IMG/VR virus record: IMGVR_UViG_3300037200_000067
Coordinates: 1-64,000 of that record
Length of the DNA: 64,000 nucleotides
Origin: a virus
Strand: one strand, 5' to 3'
Translations under genes and position numbers: made by a program
Notes under the pieces: model-generated
The model's input: only the letters and a program-made list of their open reading frames with translations
Told to the model about the DNA's origin: nothing
Databases searched by the model: none
Shown: one piece after another, positions 411 through 9,981 of the stretch
Layout: every line of letters begins with the position of its first letter
Position numbering within the stretch: position 1 is the stretch's first letter

Positions 411-3400
411 GTGAGCAACATCTATCGCCTTAACGACAGCGGCGAACCGGGCGGACTCCGTGCCCGCGTAAAAATGGTCACGGACAACCTGATCAATTTC
501 ATCAGCGGCCTCGGCACCGGCAAAGACCCAACGACAGCGTCCCGCTTTCATTTCCACGAAATCAACCGCAACGCCCTCGAAGCCGCCTATCGGTCAGACT
601 GGATAGCACGCAGGATCATCGACGCTCCCGCCGAAGATCAGACCCGCGAATGGCGCTCGTGGCAGGCGACAAACCCCCAGATCGAGGCCATCGAAGACCT
701 CGAAAAGCATCTCGATATCCAGCAGAAAACCAAGCTGGCGATCATCCGCGCGCGTCTGTATGGCGGCGCGGCGCTGGTGCTCGGCGTCGATCAAGGCGAA
801 ACGTGGGAGCCGATCGACTATGACAAGGTCGGCAAGGGCGACCTGAAATTCGTGGTGGTGATGAACCGCTACGAACTTGCTGCGGGGCCGCGCATCTATA
901 ACGTGATGAGTCCCTGGTACACGCGTCCGGAATTCTACACGGTCCAGACCCCGCTTTTTGGATTCGGCGGCGAGAACGGCACGCAATATCCCGGCATCAA
1001 CCGAACAGCTGAGGCGTTGATCGTCCCGCCTCGCGTGCAGGGCCAAGCGCCCTATCCGAGCGACAAATTCTTTCAGGTCAGCCCAAACCAGGGAATGGTG
1101 CTGATCCATCCGTCGCGGGTGATCGAACTGGCGGGAAACGAATTGCCCGACTGGCGCCTAGCGCCGATGGGCGGCGGCTGGGGCGATTCGGTCCTCCAGA
1201 CCGTTGACGAGGTGCTGAAAGACTTCGGCCTCACGGTCGGCGGCATCGCCAACATGATCAACGACGCCAAGATGGACGTCGTGAAGGTGCCGGACTTCTC
1301 AAAAAATATATCGACACAGGAATACGCGACGAAACTCGCGACCCGGTTTCAGACCGCGAACCTCCAGAAATCGGTGCTGAACGCCCTCGTTCTCGACAAG
1401 GAGGAAGAGTGGTCGCGCATCCAGACGTCGTTTGCGGCGCTGCCCGATATCATGCGGGAATACATGACGCTCGCGGCGGGCGCCGGCGGGATTCCCGTAA
1501 GCCGGCTGATGGGCCAAAGCCCCGGCCGTGGACTGAATACGACCTCTGGCGGCGACACGGATATCAAGAATTACTACGACTCGATGGCCTCGGCTCAGAA
1601 AACCACGCTCACGCCAGCGATGGAGCCGCTCGACCAGTGCCTGATCCGATCGGCAACCGGGAAATACGATAAAAATATCTGGTACGAATGGAATCCGCTT
1701 TACACGCAAGACCCGAAAGACGTGGCGGCGATCCAACTGACGAAAGCCCAAACCACCTCGCAATACGTCACGATGGGCCTGATCAACGAGGACGCGCTGC
1801 GGCAGGGCGTCGTCAATCAGTTGCTTGAGGATGGCCCTTACGCCGGTCTTGAGGACGCGATCGAGGAATATGGCTCCAAGCCCGACGTCCCCGAGTCGCG
1901 CGTCTGGTCGCCCGGCTATGATCCTGTCACCGGCAAGCCATTGCAGGGCGGCGCGGGCGGCGGCGGTGGGCCGGGCGAGCCAGGATCGCCAGCGGGCGGC
2001 TCTGGCGGCGGTGGAGGATCGAAGGGCGGCGGTGGCGCGGGAGGGCCGACGACGGCCACAGCGCCGGGCGGCAATCGCGGCGCGGGGGGAACGGGCGGCG
2101 AGACGTCGCAGGGAAACCAGGGCGGCAACGTCTTTCACATTCACCTCGCCGGCAAAGACGCGGCTGACTTTGTGCGCGACTTTGATCCAGACCAGCCGCG
2201 TGATCCTGCCGGCAAGTGGACGAGTGGCGGCGGCGCATCTGGGCTCCAGACCAAGAGCGCTAAAAGCGCAGCCTTCTTCGCCGCACTCGAGGAAAAATTC
2301 CGGGCCAGTGCGCAGGCGCGCCTTAACCCGCAGCCGCAGCGCGTCTCGACGTCGCAGGGTGAGGGCGCGCTGGCGATGTTTCACGGGACCGTCGATCAGG
2401 TCCGCGACAAAATTCTGAAGGAGGGTCTCATTCCGCATGCGAGCGGGGGCGGGGACGCTTACGCTGCAAAGCACGGAATGGGCGTCGCGAAGCATGCATT
2501 CGAGGGTGATCGGGCGAATTCCGTCTATATGTCGCCAGACCCCGATTACGCGCGTTCATTCGCGCAGATTGTCGCCAAGGATCATCCGGGCGCCAAGCCG
2601 ATTTTGTTCGAGGCTGACATTCCCGACAGCGCGACCAAAAATCTGAAACGCGACGAGCATGCGGACGGTGCGCCAGCCTATCGTTACATCGGCAAAATAC
2701 CCCCTGCGTGGCTGAAGGTGGTCCCGCTTGACACGCCAGGCTTCGGCAACATCACGACAGACGAGGATAGCGGCGTGAAGCTCTATATCCTCGTGTTCGC
2801 TGACGGGACGACGAGCGCGCTCGACTTCAACCCCAACCACGATCCGAAGACCGGGCAGTTCACGAGCGGTCAGACGGGCGCGGGCGGCGGGCAGAAATCG
2901 GCCAGAACGGCCCGATCTGGTGGCAAGACTTCCCGGAAATCCGGCGCAAAGTCGGCGGGCGCGGGCGCGGCGACAGAGGCCGCGCCAGAACCGACCGAAG
3001 GCGAGGAAGATTTCAATCGCCTGAAGGGCCATCTTCTCGCCGCAGCCGGCGCGATCAAAGACCCGGCCTCGACGATCAAAAACGCCGCGAACTGGACATC
3101 ATGGCATCAGCGCGCTGGATCACAGGCGGCATGGACGCGATCGGGGCTTAAAGCCGCTGCGGCGAGTGGCGCGAAAACGGTCGCCGGCGGCATCCACCAG
3201 GCCGCTGCCGACAAGCTATCCGACACGCTAAAGGGTCTCTTCGACACAATTTGCGAAGGCGTTGGCGGCATCGTCGGAACTGAGGTCGGCGGCATAACGG
3301 GCGGCATTGTCGGCGCGGTCTTCGGCGGAATCATCGGCTATGGCGTCGACAAGCTGATGGACCACCTTGGCGTCACGCCGGAAATGGGCGCGCACGTCCT

Positions 3401-3656
3401 GTCGGTCGCCGGCCACTCGGCGATCGCGTATGCGCACCTTCACGCGCCAAAGATCGCGCAGCGCCTCGCTACGAGCGCGCCAGAGGGCAATTGGAGCGCG
3501 GTGATGCATCCGGGCGCCTATGGCGACGCGGGCGACGGTGGCGACTTCCTCGCGCGCCTTGAGGCGTTCGTCCGCGAACTTGATGCAATGACGCCAGAGC
3601 AGATCACAGAAGCCGCCGCGCAGGCGCGGCAGGCACGCATGGGAGCGCAGATATGA
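411..3656 (+). CDS. Portal protein (DUF1073/HI1409-type) with a long C-terminal extension carrying an ART/Tpt1-like domain and a glycine zipper
   Basis: The N-terminal ~500 aa has DUF1073-type motifs (AYRSDWIARRIIDAPAEDQTREW, ARLYGGAA, GIPVSRLMGQSP.GLN, D..NYYD, WNPL). First gene of the head block. Confidence 0.9.
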   Translation: MSNIYRLNDSGEPGGLRARVKMVTDNLINFISGLGTGKDPTTASRFHFHEINRNALEAAYRSDWIARRIIDAPAEDQTREWRSWQATNPQIEAIEDLEKHLDIQQKTKLAIIRARLYGGAALVLGVDQGETWEPIDYDKVGKGDLKFVVVMNRYELAAGPRIYNVMSPWYTRPEFYTVQTPLFGFGGENGTQYPGINRTAEALIVPPRVQGQAPYPSDKFFQVSPNQGMVLIHPSRVIELAGNELPDWRLAPMGGGWGDSVLQTVDEVLKDFGLTVGGIANMINDAKMDVVKVPDFSKNISTQEYATKLATRFQTANLQKSVLNALVLDKEEEWSRIQTSFAALPDIMREYMTLAAGAGGIPVSRLMGQSPGRGLNTTSGGDTDIKNYYDSMASAQKTTLTPAMEPLDQCLIRSATGKYDKNIWYEWNPLYTQDPKDVAAIQLTKAQTTSQYVTMGLINEDALRQGVVNQLLEDGPYAGLEDAIEEYGSKPDVPESRVWSPGYDPVTGKPLQGGAGGGGGPGEPGSPAGGSGGGGGSKGGGGAGGPTTATAPGGNRGAGGTGGETSQGNQGGNVFHIHLAGKDAADFVRDFDPDQPRDPAGKWTSGGGASGLQTKSAKSAAFFAALEEKFRASAQARLNPQPQRVSTSQGEGALAMFHGTVDQVRDKILKEGLIPHASGGGDAYAAKHGMGVAKHAFEGDRANSVYMSPDPDYARSFAQIVAKDHPGAKPILFEADIPDSATKNLKRDEHADGAPAYRYIGKIPPAWLKVVPLDTPGFGNITTDEDSGVKLYILVFADGTTSALDFNPNHDPKTGQFTSGQTGAGGGQKSARTARSGGKTSRKSGAKSAGAGAATEAAPEPTEGEEDFNRLKGHLLAAAGAIKDPASTIKNAANWTSWHQRAGSQAAWTRSGLKAAAASGAKTVAGGIHQAAADKLSDTLKGLFDTICEGVGGIVGTEVGGITGGIVGAVFGGIIGYGVDKLMDHLGVTPEMGAHVLSVAGHSAIAYAHLHAPKIAQRLATSAPEGNWSAVMHPGAYGDAGDGGDFLARLEAFVRELDAMTPEQITEAAAQARQARMGAQI

Positions 3657-3871
3657 CCCTTCACGTCGTCAAGCAAAAGCCGACTGGCGGAGGCGTCCGA
3701 TCGATCGGCAATCTTTGGTTCGCGGATAAGAAGCCGGCAGACGGTCCATACGAGAGGGCGGGGCGCGTGCTCAAAGGATTGGATGTAGCCCACGCGCTCC
3801 GATTTGGCTCTGACGGCGGGCGCAGCCTCATTGTGACGGTGCGCATGCTGGAATTCGAGGGTCGCCAATGA
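3653..3871 (+). CDS. Small hypothetical protein
   Basis: ATGA overlap with the portal stop; part of a coupled run of four small ORFs. Confidence 0.55.
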   Translation: MTLHVVKQKPTGGGVRSIGNLWFADKKPADGPYERAGRVLKGLDVAHALRFGSDGGRSLIVTVRMLEFEGRQ

Positions 3872-4050
3872 AACTCACTGTCGATCCCGTCCGAAAGGTC
3901 GTCGTTATCGAAATCCGCATGGCGGAGTTACCCGACGGGGATGACGACAAGCCGCCCCAGTTTGAAGCGAGGGTCGAGGGCGTTGACCCGGATACCGGCG
4001 CGCGCCTTTTTGCCGCACTGACAATCGGCATCGTGGCGCCCACTGACTGA
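3868..4050 (+). CDS. Small hypothetical protein
   Basis: ATGA overlap with the previous ORF. Confidence 0.55.
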   Translation: MKLTVDPVRKVVVIEIRMAELPDGDDDKPPQFEARVEGVDPDTGARLFAALTIGIVAPTD

Positions 4051-4298
4051 TGCGCAACGAGGACAAAATACTGATCTTTGAACTCGCGCGCTGCCCCCTC
4101 GAATGCGCAAATGAGAAGCGTTTTTCAAAATTGATGGTCCGCGCAGCCTATGACGGCGACAGTATTTCTGGAGACGAGCGCAAGGCTCTCTATTTCTTGA
4201 TCCACAGATACGAAGAGACCGTACACACCGATATGTTGGAACTCGCGCTCGACGAAGCCGAGGCATCAGGACTCTACGATCCAATGGTGAAAATATGA
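4050..4298 (+). CDS. Small hypothetical protein
   Basis: TGATG overlap with the previous ORF. Confidence 0.6.
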   Translation: MRNEDKILIFELARCPLECANEKRFSKLMVRAAYDGDSISGDERKALYFLIHRYEETVHTDMLELALDEAEASGLYDPMVKI

Positions 4299-4552
4299 CC
4301 GAGGACGGAAGCATGAGAAATTACTTCAAGCCAAGCGCCGTCCTGGCGGTCAAGGTTGAGGCCACGCCTTTAGCAGGCGGCGCGACGATGACAAAGGAAC
4401 GCCCGCAAATGCTCTTGTCCGTCTCAATCGGCGACGTCCTACGCAGACTGGCGGATGACGTCGATAGCCGCGCCAACTGTTCGGTGCGTTGGAATACAGA
4501 CCCCGATGACGGCACGATCACGATGATGGTGGACTTCAAACCGTGGGTCTGA
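4295..4552 (+). CDS. Small hypothetical protein
   Basis: ATGA overlap upstream; TGATG overlap with the MuF start. Confidence 0.55.
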   Translation: MTEDGSMRNYFKPSAVLAVKVEATPLAGGATMTKERPQMLLSVSIGDVLRRLADDVDSRANCSVRWNTDPDDGTITMMVDFKPWV

Positions 4553-6141
4553 TGCTCGACCGCGCGCAAGGAGATCGCCGCAGGCGCATGTTGCGCGACG
4601 CGGCGAAGGGGGAAGGCCGTAGCGGGTTAGCGATAGGTCACGGCCACCTGCATGTCGCTGATCAAACGCCGGGGCGTGGAGGCAACGGGGCCTGCCTCCA
4701 CGACTCTGCCCCGGCCGCGAATGATCCAACAGGCACGACGCCGCTCCGACGGGCATTCCTGGAGGAAGCCCGTAAGCGATGGGCGGCGCTCGATGCGCTC
4801 ACAACTGACGCGATCATCAAGCACAACATGCTCGGAACCGTGAGTGTCGCCAGCATCGGGCAGGCGGCGGCGAGCGCGGTCGGCGGAAACCAGATCGACA
4901 ATTTCGCGCTCTGGTTTGGCGAGGCGGTGCGCCAGGTCGTCATGAACGGCGATGGGCAATGGGTTGCGCCATATATCCGGCAGGCCGCTGGCATGGCCGA
5001 GGAGCGCGCGCGCGGGCTGCTGAGGCTGGACGAAAACGTCGTCGAAGGCATGCCGACGCCTGACGGAAAACCATCCTCGCTCTACATCAGCCGTCCCGTC
5101 GTCAACGCCGCCGATATTGTCGCGTGGGCGAAAGACGCCGGCTTTCCGACCACGCTGCCCGCTGACGATATGCACGTCACGGTCGTCTTCTCGCGCGCGC
5201 AGGTCGATTGGGCGAATGTGCCAGATCACGGCTCTGACCATGTTACGATCGAAGGGTCTGTTGGTCGGTCCCTTGATCAGTTCGGCGACGCCGTCGTCCT
5301 TCGCTTCCCGTGCGAATATCTCGCGCGCCGCCACCATGAAATATCCGCCCTTGGCGCATCATGGGACCATCCGCAATACCAGCCGCACGTCACGATCACG
5401 TGGAACGTCGGCGACTTCGACTGGCGCAACGTGCCCCCATATGCCGGCCCGATTGTGCTCGGCCCGGAAATCTTCAAGCCAGTCAAGGAAGACTGGAAGG
5501 CGTCGATCGTCGAGGACTCCTCGCCCGCGATCAACACTCTGATCGCCGTCACGATCGCCGAACTGCGCGGGATATGCGACGCGACCATCCAGCAGGTGAC
5601 GCGCGCGATCGGCAACGCCGTCCTGGCGCATCAGCGCGCGCCGCAACTCGCCACGGCAGCGGCTGGCGTCATGCGCACAGTCGGTCTCGCCCGCACCAAC
5701 GCCATGATCAATTACATGGTCGTCAAAGCGTTCGCCGTGATCACGCTGGAGGTTTTCCGAACTGGCGGCGTCGAGCAAGTCGGAACGGTCGCCGAAAGCA
5801 TCCCGGCACCGCGCGCGCTCGACGCGCTGTTCGACGCCGCGCGCGTCACGCCGCAGGTGCGCCACGCGCGCACGGGCCAGTTCGTCAAGTTCAAAAAGCC
5901 GCCGTCGCGCAAGAGGCGCGCGGAGATTGAGAAGATCGAGGCTGGGCTCGCGGGGCTTGGCGAGGTCGACGTCGTTACGGCGGACGACGACCTGGTTTGT
6001 CAGCGCTGCCAGGACATCAGCGACAACGGGCCATACGATATAAATGAGGCGCTAGGACTTGTGCCCGTCCATATTTCCTGCCGATGCGTATTTTCACCGA
6101 CTCGCGATGAAGGAGGGCGATTTACCAAAAGGATAAAATGA
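4552..6141 (+). CDS. MuF / SPP1 gp7-family minor head protein with an inserted Acb1-like 2H phosphoesterase domain
   Basis: N-terminal DPTGTTPLRRAF and C-terminal MuF Cys/His motif (TADDDLVCQRC...PVHISCRC). The central domain has two HVT (HxT) motifs at 5173 and 5386. Confidence 0.85.
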   Translation: MLDRAQGDRRRRMLRDAAKGEGRSGLAIGHGHLHVADQTPGRGGNGACLHDSAPAANDPTGTTPLRRAFLEEARKRWAALDALTTDAIIKHNMLGTVSVASIGQAAASAVGGNQIDNFALWFGEAVRQVVMNGDGQWVAPYIRQAAGMAEERARGLLRLDENVVEGMPTPDGKPSSLYISRPVVNAADIVAWAKDAGFPTTLPADDMHVTVVFSRAQVDWANVPDHGSDHVTIEGSVGRSLDQFGDAVVLRFPCEYLARRHHEISALGASWDHPQYQPHVTITWNVGDFDWRNVPPYAGPIVLGPEIFKPVKEDWKASIVEDSSPAINTLIAVTIAELRGICDATIQQVTRAIGNAVLAHQRAPQLATAAAGVMRTVGLARTNAMINYMVVKAFAVITLEVFRTGGVEQVGTVAESIPAPRALDALFDAARVTPQVRHARTGQFVKFKKPPSRKRRAEIEKIEAGLAGLGEVDVVTADDDLVCQRCQDISDNGPYDINEALGLVPVHISCRCVFSPTRDEGGRFTKRIK

Positions 6142-6142
6142 G

Positions 6143-6577
6143 TTGGGGCTGGTGGCAACCGAATATACACGAAACGTTAATCAGTCGTCCCTATCGCTCG
6201 AAGCAAGGCTCCGGGCTGAGAACGCATCTTTGCGCGATCAGCTTGAGGAGTTGAGAGAGCGGTTTGAGATTTATAAACGGGAAACGCTGACCTCGTCATG
6301 GTCGCCCCCGATCGCATTAAGGCTTAGCAAAAGCGAGCGCGTCGTGCTCGAAGCCTTATATCGGCGGGATTTCGTGGCGAAAGAAGCAATGGTGATGGTG
6401 CTTTACGACGATAAAATAGACGACTCGCCCTACTCAAATACAGTGGCCGCGTTCGTCTCCAAAATTCGTCGTAAACTGAGGCCGTACCAAATCCCAATCC
6501 TGAACCGCTGGGGCGTCGGATATTTCATCACCAGCGCTGACAAGCGCCGCCTCGATGAGATCGCCGAATCCCTCTGA
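6143..6577 (+). CDS. Winged-helix transcription factor (OmpR/PhoB-type DNA-binding domain, CtrA-like) with an N-terminal coiled coil and no receiver domain
   Basis: LSKSERVVLEAL...KEAMVMVLY...NTVAAFVSKIRRKL...ILNRWGVGY matches the Trans_reg_C pattern. Confidence 0.75.
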   Translation: MGLVATEYTRNVNQSSLSLEARLRAENASLRDQLEELRERFEIYKRETLTSSWSPPIALRLSKSERVVLEALYRRDFVAKEAMVMVLYDDKIDDSPYSNTVAAFVSKIRRKLRPYQIPILNRWGVGYFITSADKRRLDEIAESL

Positions 6578-6592
6578 GGCGGCGGGGACAGG

Positions 6593-8413
6593 ATGGGATT
6601 GCGATACCCGAAAGCGCCCCGCCAGATTGCGGACGGGATCACCCGCGTCAACCTCCTTGATCCCTTCATACTCGACGGCCTCGTTAAGACCAGCGACGGC
6701 ACAATGCGCCGCACGGCGGACGGCTATCTCACCGCCTTCGCCAATGTCGCGCGAACGGGCATCCAGCAGTACAAGGGCAAAGAGCTTGGCCGGCCCGATC
6801 TGGACGTCGTGAACGTCTATCGGCCCGCTGACGAGGTATTCTCGCGCGACGCCATGCATTCGATGGCGCACAAGCCCGTCACGCTCTACCACCCGACCGA
6901 AGCCGTCACCTCGAAGAACTGGAAAGACCACGCGGGCGGATCGACCGGCGATGAGGTTGTCCGCGACGGCGATCATGTCCGCGTCCCGCTGGTCATGATG
7001 GACCAAGGCCTGATCGACGCCGTCGAAAAGGGCGGCATCAAAGAACTGTCGATGGGCTACTCGACGGACCTGAAATGGGGCCGTGGGACGACGCCAGAGG
7101 GCCTGTCCTACGACGCCACGCAGACCAATATCCGCGCCAATCACCTGGCGGTGGTGCCCGTCGCGCGCGGCGGCAACACGCTGCGGCTGGACGCGACGAT
7201 GGCCCAGCCGAATGTCTGCCCGAACTGCGGCGCGGACATTCCGCCGAACGCAGACGAATGCCCGGCCTGCGAATTCGATCTCACCAACGACATGGCGCTT
7301 GACCGCGTGCCCATGAAATATTGCACCGACTGCGGCACGTCGATGATGGCCGATGCAAAGTTCTGTCCCGGCTGCTCGAAGGCGACCAAAGACGGCATGC
7401 CGCCCAAGACCTGCGCTCAATGTGGAGCACAGATGAAATTCTATGCGCTGGCGTGCCCGGTCTGCCAGACGCCCGCGCCGATGCGCGACGCAGCGAACCT
7501 GACCGCGCGCATGGTCGACGCGAATTTTTACTGGATCGTCGACAAGGTGTTCACCGAACAGAAGCGCGCGCAGATGGCGAAGTCCGGCGCCGCGATGCCC
7601 GGAGGGCGCTATCCGATCGCGACCGCTGCGGACGTCGAGAATGCGGTCAGAGACTACAACCGCACCGGCCAGCCGGCCGACGTCAAAGCCCACATCATCG
7701 CCCGCGCGAAAGCGATCGGGGCCACCAGTTCGCTGCCCGATGGATGGGCGTCGAAAACCAACGACAGCAAAGGAAATCCCATGAGCGCGACCATCACGAT
7801 TGACGGCGCCACGATCGCGGTGGCCGACGAACTCTCCGCTGCGGTCATCACCAAGAAGGTGACCGATCTCTCGCGCCAGCTTCGCGACGCCGAGAAGACG
7901 GCAGCCTCGGCCAAGGCCGACAAGGAAGAGGCCGAGGAAGAGAAGATGAAGCAGGAAGACGGCTTCAAGAAGCAGATCGCGGCCAAGGACGGCGAAATCG
8001 TCGCGCTGAAGTCGCAGTTGAAAGACGCCGTGATGAGCCCCGAGAAGCTCGACGCGCTGGTCAAGGACCGCGCCGAGGTTGTCGGCAAGTCCAAGTCGTT
8101 CCTCGGCGACGGCTTCACCTTCGACGGCAAGACTCTCGACGACATCAAGCGCGCGGTGGTCGCCAGCAAGATCGGCGATGCGGAAGCGAAGACGATGGAC
8201 GCTATTGGCGTCGCTGCGGCGTTCAAGGTGCTGACGGCCGGCACGGACACCCGCGACGGCTTTGGCCGCAGCGGCGGCGCCCGCGATATTGGCTTTGCGC
8301 TGCATCACCAGCAGTCGAACGGCCAGCGTCCCGGCGTCCGCGTTCAGGACGCTGCGCTCAGCGATTACGAAAAGAACCTCAACTCGGCATGGCAGACGAA
8401 GCGCGCCTCGTAA
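6593..8413 (+). CDS. Prohead protease/scaffold (DUF2213-type) with inserted zinc ribbons
   Basis: RTADGYL...ARTGIQQY, VYRPADEVF, PVTLYHP, ELSMGYS and NHLAVVPVARGG motifs. C-terminal coiled-coil scaffold region. Confidence 0.88.
   Translation: MGLRYPKAPRQIADGITRVNLLDPFILDGLVKTSDGTMRRTADGYLTAFANVARTGIQQYKGKELGRPDLDVVNVYRPADEVFSRDAMHSMAHKPVTLYHPTEAVTSKNWKDHAGGSTGDEVVRDGDHVRVPLVMMDQGLIDAVEKGGIKELSMGYSTDLKWGRGTTPEGLSYDATQTNIRANHLAVVPVARGGNTLRLDATMAQPNVCPNCGADIPPNADECPACEFDLTNDMALDRVPMKYCTDCGTSMMADAKFCPGCSKATKDGMPPKTCAQCGAQMKFYALACPVCQTPAPMRDAANLTARMVDANFYWIVDKVFTEQKRAQMAKSGAAMPGGRYPIATAADVENAVRDYNRTGQPADVKAHIIARAKAIGATSSLPDGWASKTNDSKGNPMSATITIDGATIAVADELSAAVITKKVTDLSRQLRDAEKTAASAKADKEEAEEEKMKQEDGFKKQIAAKDGEIVALKSQLKDAVMSPEKLDALVKDRAEVVGKSKSFLGDGFTFDGKTLDDIKRAVVASKIGDAEAKTMDAIGVAAAFKVLTAGTDTRDGFGRSGGARDIGFALHHQQSNGQRPGVRVQDAALSDYEKNLNSAWQTKRAS
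7781..8413 (+). CDS. Probable nested scaffolding protein translated from an internal start
   Basis: In-frame ATG at 7781 preceded by AAAGGAAATCCC (strong RBS). Product MSATITIDG... is a charged coiled coil. Confidence 0.6.
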   Translation: MSATITIDGATIAVADELSAAVITKKVTDLSRQLRDAEKTAASAKADKEEAEEEKMKQEDGFKKQIAAKDGEIVALKSQLKDAVMSPEKLDALVKDRAEVVGKSKSFLGDGFTFDGKTLDDIKRAVVASKIGDAEAKTMDAIGVAAAFKVLTAGTDTRDGFGRSGGARDIGFALHHQQSNGQRPGVRVQDAALSDYEKNLNSAWQTKRAS

Positions 8414-8461
8414 GGCGCGCGACATCCTGCGTCGAAACCTTCGCTTTATGGAGCATGACCA

Positions 8462-8983
8462 ATGATTACTCCCGGCCCCGTCCAGACCAGCTATAACCAG
8501 TATGTCACGCCGGGCCAGGTCGGCACGCGTGCGTCTACCTATGGCTGGGACGTCGACAGCCGCATTTGCAGCGACCTTTCGGGGGACGGCATTGGCCTCG
8601 GTCTGGTCGTCTCGCAGAGCGCGGTGAGCGACGCGGCCGTTGTCATCGGCCATCTTTCAGGCGGCGTGGTGATCGGCATTTCGGTCGCCGATCCGACCTT
8701 GCCGAACGTCGGCGTGGTCCCGGTCGACACCTATGCGAACGGCGACAACATGGGCGTCGCTACGCGCGGCGACTGGTGGGTTGAGGTCGTGGGCGACGTC
8801 GCGGCGGGGGGCGAGGTTTATTACGACACCGTGACCGGCCAGCTTGGGCCGTCCGGCATCAGCAACGCGGCGCAGCTTCACGGCGCGACCTTCATGACCA
8901 GCGTCCCGTACACCGACGTTCCTTCGGTCACGATGGGCCAGCTTGCGGTCGTTCGCCTGAGCGGCATTTCCGAGCGCCAGTAA
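8462..8983 (+). CDS. Head decoration / cement protein
   Basis: Lies between protease and major capsid genes; beta-rich with a GVATRGDWWVEV motif typical of this slot. Confidence 0.75.
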   Translation: MITPGPVQTSYNQYVTPGQVGTRASTYGWDVDSRICSDLSGDGIGLGLVVSQSAVSDAAVVIGHLSGGVVIGISVADPTLPNVGVVPVDTYANGDNMGVATRGDWWVEVVGDVAAGGEVYYDTVTGQLGPSGISNAAQLHGATFMTSVPYTDVPSVTMGQLAVVRLSGISERQ

Positions 8984-9036
8984 CCCGCTGACTGAACAGA
9001 ATTCCTAGACGCCTCGCGCGAGAAAAGGACACTACA

Positions 9037-9981
9037 ATGCGTCACTTCATGTTGGACTCGCAGCAGGCCCTGGGCTTTCTGATCGAGCAGACGACTTCGA
9101 TCGAAAGCGAAGTCTATCGCATCCAGTACCCGGATATCCTCTACCCGCAGCTTGTGCCGGTCGATACGAGCGCATCGGAGTGGGCGAAGTCAGTCACGTA
9201 CTTCTCGCTCGATAAGGTTGGCGAGGCGCAGTGGTTCGACGGCATGGCGACCAACATGCCGCTAGCCGACATCAACCGCGCCAAGTACGAGCAGGGCATC
9301 GAAATGGCCGGCATCGGCTATCGCTACACGCTCGAGGAACTCGGGCAGGCGATGATGATCCCCGGCCTGAACCTGTCGAGCGAAAGGGCGGAAGCCGCGC
9401 GTCGGTCCTACGAGGAATTCATGGACCGGCTGGCGCGTATCGGCGATGCGCGCAAGCAGGTGACGGGCCTGCTCAACAACGCGACGGTCACGCAGGTCGA
9501 TGCGATTGCGGACGGCACCGGCTCCAGTGCGTTGTGGTCGAATAAAACTGCGGATCAGATGATCCGCGACGTCCAGAACGCTCTCACGGCGGTTTACGAG
9601 GGTTCAAACACGGTCGAAATGGCCGACACGGTTCTGCTGCCGATCAGCAATATGGAACTGCTCGCCAACACCCGCGTCCCGAACACCTTCGGCAACGCGC
9701 TCGACTATCTGATGAAGTACAACCTGTATACGCATACGACCGGCGCGCCGCTGACGATTCGCGGCATTCTGAACCTGAACAATCTTGGCGTGGGCGGAAC
9801 GGGTCGCATGGTCGCCTATCGCCGCGACCCGCGTGTCGTGAAGCTGCATGTCCCGATGGTCCACCGCTTCCTGCCCGTCTGGCAGACCGGCCCGATCACC
9901 TATGACATTCCCGGAATTTTCCGCGTCGGTTCGGTCGAAATCCGGCGCCCCGGCGCATTCACTTACGTAGATGGGATTTGA
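9037..9981 (+). CDS. Major capsid protein (DUF2184 / encapsulin-like HK97 fold)
   Basis: 314 aa, strong RBS (AAAAGGAC). Motifs IGYRYTLEEL, GLLNN, GRMVAY and GSVEIRRPGAFTYVDGI. Confidence 0.92.
   Translation: MRHFMLDSQQALGFLIEQTTSIESEVYRIQYPDILYPQLVPVDTSASEWAKSVTYFSLDKVGEAQWFDGMATNMPLADINRAKYEQGIEMAGIGYRYTLEELGQAMMIPGLNLSSERAEAARRSYEEFMDRLARIGDARKQVTGLLNNATVTQVDAIADGTGSSALWSNKTADQMIRDVQNALTAVYEGSNTVEMADTVLLPISNMELLANTRVPNTFGNALDYLMKYNLYTHTTGAPLTIRGILNLNNLGVGGTGRMVAYRRDPRVVKLHVPMVHRFLPVWQTGPITYDIPGIFRVGSVEIRRPGAFTYVDGI

Follow-up and report, generated by a model that had tools for sequence, protein, structure and literature searches.

The virus examined here is IMG/VR record IMGVR_UViG_3300037200_000067, a complete genome of 74,259 bp with direct terminal repeats, and the window analyzed is its first 64,000 nucleotides. 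The phage is uncultured and is known here from its genes alone. The window holds, on the + strand, a head module with the gene order portal, four small open reading frames (ORFs), MuF-like gene, winged-helix gene, protease-scaffold gene, cement gene, and PF09950 capsid gene. With its DUF1073 portal, MuF, DUF2213 serine protease-scaffold, cement protein, and PF09950 capsid protein, it is by its sequence families a head module of the T1/Pam3 type. A first-pass annotation of the window had stated that three head genes bear extra domains and had quoted 11 x-x-Asp motifs, mostly at the borders of these domains; we found extra domains in the architectures of the portal, the MuF-like protein, and the DUF2213 protease-scaffold, and all 11 motifs stand where they had been placed. 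The subject of this report is the proposal that the DUF2213 protease cuts after such Asp residues and so frees the passenger domains inside the procapsid.

A megablast search of the region against deposited phages gave no match, and thus no close DNA relative. A search for related loci with the protease alone returned no relatives, and one with the portal core returned just three short fragments. The capsid protein, used in the same way, retrieved nine head modules whose capsid proteins are 64 to 84% identical, and in these nine modules the portal, MuF, and protease genes bear differing passengers. The more distant phages T1 and TLS share the module by Pfam (PF06381 portal, PF04233 MuF, DUF2213 protease-scaffold, PF22758 cement, and PF09950 capsid protein), and the position of the protease-scaffold gene between the MuF and cement/capsid genes is the same in T1, TLS, and Pam3.

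The major capsid protein (9037 to 9981) had been said to open with the x-x-Asp motif, and it does: the predicted cut FMLD7↓S8, with the arrow marking the bond, has seven residues ahead of it. Of the capsid homologues listed, 119 extend over the N terminus (67 to 83% identical); every one of these has this Asp, in the context MRxN[LM]xD↓x, and the residue after the cut (P1′) varies among them (S, N, A, T, D, V, or M). The mature capsid protein of TLS begins, by Edman degradation, with ASDMGIW (PMC11447400). In the TLS capsid sequence (L003:7088-8062), these residues follow GAKND27 and begin at residue 28, and T1 has VKQD↓AAATMGIW at the same place. Since D7 here and D9 in Pam3 both lie 23 to 24 residues ahead of the same conserved YP, our alignment makes D7 the predicted homologue of the TLS cut after D27 and of Pam3 D9. 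T1 (gp50/gp47) and TLS (gp33/gp36; PMC11447400) have the same module with no passenger domains. Their capsid propeptides, at 26 to 27 residues, are longer than the 7 residues here, and they have Lys at P3 in contrast to the hydrophobic residue here. The text of the TLS paper gives 45 residues as removed (PMC11447400), whereas the deposited sequence gives 27, with the cut after Asp27.

The protease gene (6593 to 8413) encodes a 606-aa head protease-scaffold fusion with inserted modules. Residues 40 to 199 match DUF2213 (PF09979; E = 7.6e-49, 166 bits versus a cut-off of 22), and the protein matches phrog_530, “head maturation protease” (E = 1.5e-84). With its AlphaFold2 (AF2) model, which has a predicted local distance difference test score (pLDDT) of 81, the top Foldseek matches were the T4 gp21 chains of PDB 5JBL (E = 1.2e-4, probability 1.00, TM score 0.49 on the target), so that the modeled protease has an assemblin/T4 gp21-like fold. 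The protease domain (6701 to 7192), with H100 and S153, ends in LRLD200↓A; this end reads LNLD↓A for T1 and LNLD↓S for TLS. We compared it with 151 DUF2213 representatives, each standing for a cluster at 50% identity. All of them have H100 and S153 (151/151), and the domain-terminal Asp, in the form L-[RK]-[IL]-G-D, is present in all but one (150/151). The Ser has been named as catalytic in the DUF2213 protease of Bas11 (bioRxiv 10.1101/2023.05.21.541620). Residue 23 is acidic (Asp or Glu) in 147/151; D23, which was outside the quoted motifs, is located in a modeled strand, and its status as a cut site is therefore less clear.

Between this domain and the scaffold lie three zinc ribbons (7217 to 7474, residues 209 to 294; Pfam DZR, E = 3.4e-12, and Zn_Ribbon_1) and a helical module with the pattern MPGGxYPI...RAKAIG...LPDGW (7544 to 7765, residues ~318 to 388), which is confidently folded in the model and ends in KTND391↓S. 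The description of this chain as bearing zinc ribbons and a small helical domain thus holds. The scaffold domain (7781 to 8413), a coiled coil in the model with a helix at 413 to 479 and further helices, makes up the C-terminal half of the protein. The modules are joined by three low-confidence linkers (residues 196 to 205, 297 to 317, and 389 to 396, the first and last with pLDDT below 50), each of which holds one of the quoted Asp sites. In relatives, the stretch from protease to scaffold can be as short as about 10 residues or hundreds of residues long, and it includes zinc ribbons, which vary in presence and number, the helical module, and others. Eight of the close head modules have unlike inserts here, each closing with [ST]-x-x-D↓[ASG] just ahead of the scaffold. 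The helical module together with this terminal motif is kept in L004, L005, L007, L008, L009, L010, and many of the representatives; the small helical domain of the first-pass annotation is a conserved module. Passengers also occur at the N terminus of the L004 and L007 proteases, where they precede a conserved ...[LM]-x-[FY]-D↓ site. A ChaB-like domain was seen there by eye in both (L004:7723-9324 and L007:7459-9381, ORF starts taken from the longest frame), and L007 also has a zinc ribbon.

The MuF-like gene (4543 to 6141) encodes a divergent protein of 532 aa that is split by an insert. It had no direct match to PF04233 up to an E value of 5, and our own 13-sequence profile of such proteins did not match the MuF proteins of T1, TLS, or Pam3. 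We assign it provisionally to MuF because of its place in the gene order from portal to protease, its C-terminal CxxC...HxxCRC motif (CQRCQ...HISCRC, residues 486 to 515), and its collinearity with P0113, whose PF04233 domain (201 to 306) overlaps the aligned parts; P0011 has a sub-threshold PF04233 match (E = 0.0024). The insert had been described as a 2H phosphoesterase, which the family search bore out: it is an Acb1-type 2H phosphoesterase domain (5077 to 5502; PF23474, residues 179 to 320, E = 2.7e-42), full-length at model positions 2 to 143 of 144, and both HxT motifs are in place, HVTV at residue 211 and HVTIT at residue 282. In the PDB it matches the C terminus of the Pam3 portal and Acb1 itself (7T26, E = 4e-16). 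The insert is thus a predicted Acb1 nuclease of cyclic-oligonucleotide immune signals.

Asp residues recur at the borders of passengers in an alignment of MuF homologues. Six residues ahead of a conserved DPTGT lies the predicted cut CLHD54↓S (4702 to 4704), a column with Asp in 12 of 13 homologues; N-terminal extensions close with V-x-D↓[ASG] a few residues ahead of DPTGT, and L004 and L007 have extra N-terminal domains there. At the left border of the Acb1 insert (5029 to 5064), both LRLD163↓E and PTPD174↓G are present. D163 aligns with the Asp ahead of short sequence tags, described below, in L008 and L010, and D174 aligns with the D↓A of portal-Acb1 fusions (60/64). The conserved border ahead of Acb1 is, on this alignment, D174↓G175 rather than the quoted D163. 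At the right border, IVED325↓S (5515 to 5517), the inserts of relatives end in ITED↓SA (P0012), VAAD↓TQ (L008), and RVHD↓AA (L010). Over the alignment, middle inserts start at VRD↓A, IED↓A, ATD↓G, or MAD↓A and end at VAAD↓T, RVHD↓A, ITED↓S, or IVED↓S; a second insertion point lies at HGKxLxxD↓A, and C-terminal cargo follows RFAxVxD↓. At LFD431↓A, a predicted cut with a degenerate tag (RHARTGQFV) behind it (5833 to 5886), MuF relatives have a conserved D↓A, and in L005 and P0009 a tag and cargo are inserted exactly at this place. By an informal hand count, Asp was found at about 22 of the 22 insertion or extension borders examined.

The portal gene (411 to 3656) encodes 1081 aa, a DUF1073/PF06381 core with a C-terminal extension. 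The core matches PF06381 at residues 56 to 449 (E = 1.6e-87, 293.9 bits, model positions 3 to 355 of 357) and phrog_146 at residues 21 to 495. It is followed by a Gly-rich linker (1947 to 2135), which is a sequence reading with equivalents in P0008 and in portal-Acb1 fusions, and by a 490-residue extension found in one other database protein only, the full-length homologue P0008 of the same architecture. The extension contains the predicted cut FVRD590↓F followed by a first cargo tag (FDPDQPRDPAGKWTSGG; 2178 to 2231), which recurs in P0008, P0009, L005, L008, and L010. An ART-like (ADP-ribosyltransferase-like) domain (2376 to 2810), whose fold is not established, comes next, and then the predicted cut SALD805↓F with a variant second tag (FNPNHDPKTGQFTSG; 2823 to 2870). 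The P0008 counterpart of the second site reads SARD↓YNPNHDPKTGQF, called identical, and a similar variant is found in L009 (AILD↓FNPLHEP). D590 and D805 thus each directly precede a tag, and each is conserved in P0008. The last module is a glycine-zipper hydrophobic segment (3258 to 3347, residues 950 to 979), also conserved in P0008, for which no family match was found.

The earlier claim that the portal carries an ART-like domain plus a glycine zipper stood for the zipper only. The ART-like domain had no hidden Markov model or PDB sequence match, and the extension as a whole had no Pfam or PDB sequence match. Its AF2 model, built from two sequences, had a pLDDT of 37, too poor for the fold search with Foldseek, which returned nothing; VIA-align gave helical-hairpin matches only, in the low-confidence C-terminal part (Z ≤8.5), which were uninformative. 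ESM Atlas placed the domain near PARP, Tox-ART-HYD1, and Arr clusters at 0.88 to 0.90, and H658, Y706, and D736, which would fit the catalytic triad of the H-Y-[E/D] clade, are kept in the single homologue P0008; the ART assignment is only a lead. In the poor model, strand 789 to 798 is placed together with this domain, and D784, quoted as a border (ITTD784↓E), is probably a loop of it.

The comparison could be extended beyond the close relatives through Acb1. In a homology search, Acb1 was found fused to DUF1073, HK97-type, and Mu-type portals, DUF2213 and XkdF-type proteases, ChaB, ART, and topoisomerase. In 60 of 64 DUF1073 portal-Acb1 fusions, a hypervariable linker ends with D↓[ASTG], mostly x-x-D↓A-A-P-R, directly before Acb1, whereas none of 15 fusions with other N-terminal partners have Asp there (Fisher p = 7e-13). 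In Pam3, a phage with a DUF2213 protease-scaffold (gp5), VTD↓ATPR stands ahead of Acb1 on the portal, where the domain spans residues 460 to 618 (8HDS; L016:2272-4137). Acb1 is also fused directly to DUF2213 proteases in P0071, P0081, P0082, P0084, P0085, and P0108. In T1-like phages, the DUF2213 protease has a scaffold domain that reportedly triggers type I CBASS, the antiphage signaling system based on cyclic oligonucleotides (bioRxiv 10.1101/2023.05.21.541620), and such a fusion would place the trigger of the sensor and its antidote on one chain.

A further line of comparison comes from the tag itself. Most passengers open with [FY]-x-P-[DN]-QPRDxxG[KR]W followed by a Gly-rich stretch; two are found on the portal of this phage, and the degenerate one in its MuF. 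We scanned IMG/VR for the core pattern DQPRDxxGRW, which says nothing about the upstream residue, and found at least 131 tags on at least 120 viral contigs; the head proteases of these contigs were then typed by profile search. Among the matches listed, to which the counts that follow refer, the residue ahead of the aromatic of the tag is mostly Lys and sometimes Asp or Glu. DUF2213 was above the cut-off on 11 contigs; the 10 with an internal tag all have Asp ahead of it (11 tags), and in the eleventh an ORF opens with the tag. Peptidase_S78, an HK97-type protease family, was found on 13 contigs, and Lys precedes the tag on every one of them (15 tags). The association of the preceding residue with the protease family is strong (Fisher p = 9e-7), although this value ignores kinship among the contigs. 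Asp-type tags occur on five further contigs, all of them fragments of ≤17 kb. The HK97 protease cuts its capsid protein after Lys. Because Asp goes with DUF2213 and Lys with S78, the residue before the tag appears to behave as the P1 residue, the one just ahead of the cut, of the resident head protease. Stand-alone genes in L031, L065, and P0260 begin with M-[FY]-[ND]-P-[DN]-QPRD and so match the predicted new N terminus. Some tags have an additional A or G ahead of the aromatic; once these were aligned, an initial reading of the pre-tag Asp as not conserved was dropped.

Two other forms of the tag were observed. Glu-preceded tags (IEFY.., FEAF.., AEFY..) occur in L018, L019, L022, L025, L027, L030, L084, L122, and L125; in their contigs no S77, no S78, and no convincing DUF2213 protease was found, and there may be a third type of protease, with Glu at P1. 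A second tag variant, with a longer glycine run and Val in place of Asp, is found in L005:1447-4731, L008:502-3741, P0320, and P0339, as [FY]-[DN]-P-D-QPRVPAGSPxGG[EQ][FW] and WN-x-x-(L)HPRVPAGSPxGGQF.

Taken site by site, the comparisons give strong support to capsid D7, protease D200, portal D590 and D805, and MuF D54, D325, and D431 as putative cut sites, i.e., to about 7 of the 11 quoted. Support is moderate for protease D391 and less clear for MuF D163, and MuF D174 is a candidate site added by the present analysis. There is none for portal D784 or protease D299. Alignment of homologous loci therefore showed inserts flanked by Asp at the MuF, protease, and portal-Acb1 borders, but not at ITTD784 or PMRD299. 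The same division applies to the claim that an Asp-specific DUF2213 protease excises the domains: the TLS Edman site, the conservation, and the Acb1 and tag tests argue for Asp specificity and for Asp at cargo borders, and D784 and D299 are not part of that pattern.

On this evidence we consider it probable, with moderate confidence, that the DUF2213 protease cuts after Asp at domain borders and frees passengers inside the procapsid. The portal, MuF, and protease-scaffold would co-assemble into a procapsid with the passengers facing inward, and the protease would then cut after exposed Asp residues, usually with a hydrophobic P3 or P4 and a loose P1′. The capsid protein would lose seven residues (D7↓S8), the protease would separate from the scaffold (D200↓A and D391↓S), and passengers would be cut out of the portal, MuF, and the protease's own chain: Acb1 from MuF, the ART-like domain and glycine-zipper module from the portal, and the zinc ribbons and helical module from the protease. 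A cut directly ahead of a tag would give a freed passenger that starts with the tag, like the stand-alone tagged genes. To pass out by the portal channel, passengers would have to be released. More weakly inferred, by analogy with T4 Alt, the T4 internal proteins, and SPP1 gp7-type proteins, are the retention of the freed passengers in the head and their entry, along with the DNA, into the next host.

Several observations weigh against this reading. The sole experimental cut is that of the TLS capsid protein, which belongs to a distant relative and is not a cargo fusion. A conserved Asp could be structural, and the domain-terminal Asp of the protease could belong to its fold or active site. 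P1′ differs by site class, being A or S in T1/TLS and F, Y, A, or G before tags. Portal ITTD784↓E is not conserved in the alignment with P0008, and protease PMRD299↓A is not conserved in relatives. In the tag test, which ignores shared ancestry, some Asp-type contigs are related, although at least six distinct sequence families are represented, and Lys is the commonest pre-tag residue overall, which makes the S78 half of the test weaker. The Pam3 cryo-electron microscopy paper describes no 2H domain on the portal, and the Bas63 and Pam3 structure papers are both silent on cleavage; the Acb1 domain of the Pam3 portal may be either flexible or cut off in virions.

The first-pass annotation had itself cautioned that Asp is common and that the motif needs statistics, and this caution was justified. 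Asp makes up 6 to 9% of residues in these proteins, with 55 in the 606 residues of the protease, and the chance that all three protease linkers hold a site is 0.28 when any Asp counts and 0.07 when D[ASG] is required, neither significant. Taken by itself, the window shows no excess of the motif over chance. The 11 motifs share only the Asp, and their borders were chosen after the fact, so that the whole border pattern might be fortuitous. We regard this as very improbable, given the family-wide conservation of Asp, the two Fisher tests, and the TLS Edman site, which contradict a chance origin for the capsid, protease-end, Acb1-border, and tag sites; chance is possible for ITTD784 and PMRD299.

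Rather than being freed, the fusions might stay whole, in which case the Asp would be a tag or linker residue and the tethered enzymes would act late in the producing cell; Acb1, for example, would destroy CBASS signals when the scaffold is made, and fusion would serve co-expression and dosage, not delivery. The triggering of type I CBASS by the scaffold domain of a T1-like DUF2213 protease (bioRxiv 10.1101/2023.05.21.541620) fits this, as do the direct fusions of Acb1 to DUF2213 proteases and to portals in the database, and no report of cleavage of any such fusion was found in the literature searched. Yet the pre-tag residue changes with the protease family, Asp with DUF2213 and Lys with S78, which is unexpected of a passive linker residue, and stand-alone tagged genes start exactly at the predicted cut. 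We find permanently intact fusions unlikely; cleavage is in any case compatible with a late role in the producing cell. It is also conceivable that the passengers are cut but never delivered, and are instead assembly aids or internal head components (DNA organizers, scaffold helpers, or portal plugs), or are degraded or lost like scaffold fragments. Protease-scaffold fragments normally leave the head during prohead maturation, and the zinc ribbons and helical module lie within the protease-scaffold chain. There is also no sequence sign of ejection, and nothing in the glycine-zipper or small modules bears the signature of an enzyme. A precedent for delivery, however, is offered by T4 Alt and the internal proteins. 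Acb1, moreover, is an anti-defense enzyme whose substrate is found only in the host cytoplasm (Pfam PF23474; PMC5512222), and its recurrent fusion to portal, MuF, and protease fits packaging for delivery. That the cut passengers are never delivered is in our judgment quite unlikely, and cleavage by the DUF2213 protease followed by release inside the head is the reading we retain.

In T4, gp21 cuts head proteins and packaged effectors (IPI-III and Alt) in the procapsid, and the effectors, one of them an ADP-ribosyltransferase, are injected with the DNA. T4 gp21 requires an acidic P1 and cuts after Glu. The protease described here is alike in its modeled assemblin/gp21 fold and predicted acidic P1 but differs in that this P1 is Asp, not Glu, and the family is DUF2213. 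The cargo of T4 is encoded by separate genes and has an N-terminal targeting peptide that is removed, whereas here it is fused to the portal, MuF, and protease, and the tag, being downstream of the predicted cut, should stay on the cargo; the system would thus resemble the T4 cargo in its working without being a member of it. The head proteases of giant phages, phiKZ gp175 and SPN3US gp245, reportedly process many ejection proteins packaged in the head, at a short motif whose P1 is acidic (x-x-Glu). They differ in lineage and motif, and their cargo comes from separate genes with no shared tag. Protease-processed head cargo is thus classical for T4 and documented for giant phages.

The theme of fusion was also published in 2017. 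2H phosphoesterase, ART, and other effectors fused to MuF and portal proteins have been described and predicted to be packaged and delivered (PMC5512222; PMC5576092), and 2H domains were predicted to degrade immune nucleotides (PMC5512222). The present phage fits this class of polyvalent or head-fused effector proteins (PMC5512222), with Acb1 in MuF, a portal extension, and a late-gene context. Iyer et al. and Jamet et al. (2017; PMC5512222 and PMC5576092) envisaged processing by built-in zincin-like peptidases, whereas we propose the prohead protease with a family-specific P1; we found no mention of the tag in either paper. Acb1 of T4 57B (PDB 7T26) is free-standing, in contrast to the insert in the middle of MuF, whose activity here is predicted, and the same domain is at the C terminus of the Pam3 portal (PDB 8HDS) rather than in MuF. 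In the literature searched, we found, apart from the one capsid datum of TLS/T1, no Asp rule for DUF2213, nothing on a prohead protease, instead of built-in zincins, that frees fused cargo, nothing relevant on DUF2213 cleavage or on Acb1 in virions, and no account of the tag or its protease-matched P1.

Other features of the module concern gene expression and neighboring genes. An in-frame ATG (M397, at 7781) opens the scaffold, and 6 nt ahead of it is a Shine-Dalgarno-like AAAGGAA (window positions 7766 to 7783 for the two together). KG[DE]xxM is conserved ahead of the scaffold across the DUF2213 family, with the Met about 8 residues before the scaffold VDG, and the codons for K-G-[DE] preceding this Met would be AAGGGNGA. 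This layout suggests that the scaffold may also be made from an internal start (AAAGGAAATCCCATG), as a nested gene like lambda C/Nu3. The four small overlapping ORFs between portal and MuF (3653 to 4552; 72, 60, 82, and 85 aa) had no family match; they lie just downstream of the ART-like domain and could encode immunity or assembly factors. The winged-helix gene between MuF and protease (6143 to 6577; Trans_reg_C, E = 2.3e-6) lies inside the head operon and is receiver-less. The cement gene occupies 8462 to 8983.

We would tentatively propose, as a plausible generalization, that the tag is a general N-terminal leader of phage head cargo that is exposed by each phage's own prohead protease. The cut site, tag, Gly linker, and effector might then form a portable cassette used in the portal, MuF, and protease of many unrelated phages, and the tag might mark head retention and possibly ejection. 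If the reading is true, DUF2213, a large and little-studied head protease family (T1-like coliphages, Pam3, and many soil and rhizobial phages), would gain an after-Asp rule that is directly testable in the cultured phages Pam3, T1, and TLS. It would also explain the frequent fusion of Acb1 and other effectors to portal, MuF, and protease genes, and the tag together with its preceding residue would let packaged, probably injected proteins such as Acb1 be read from the genomes of uncultured phages.

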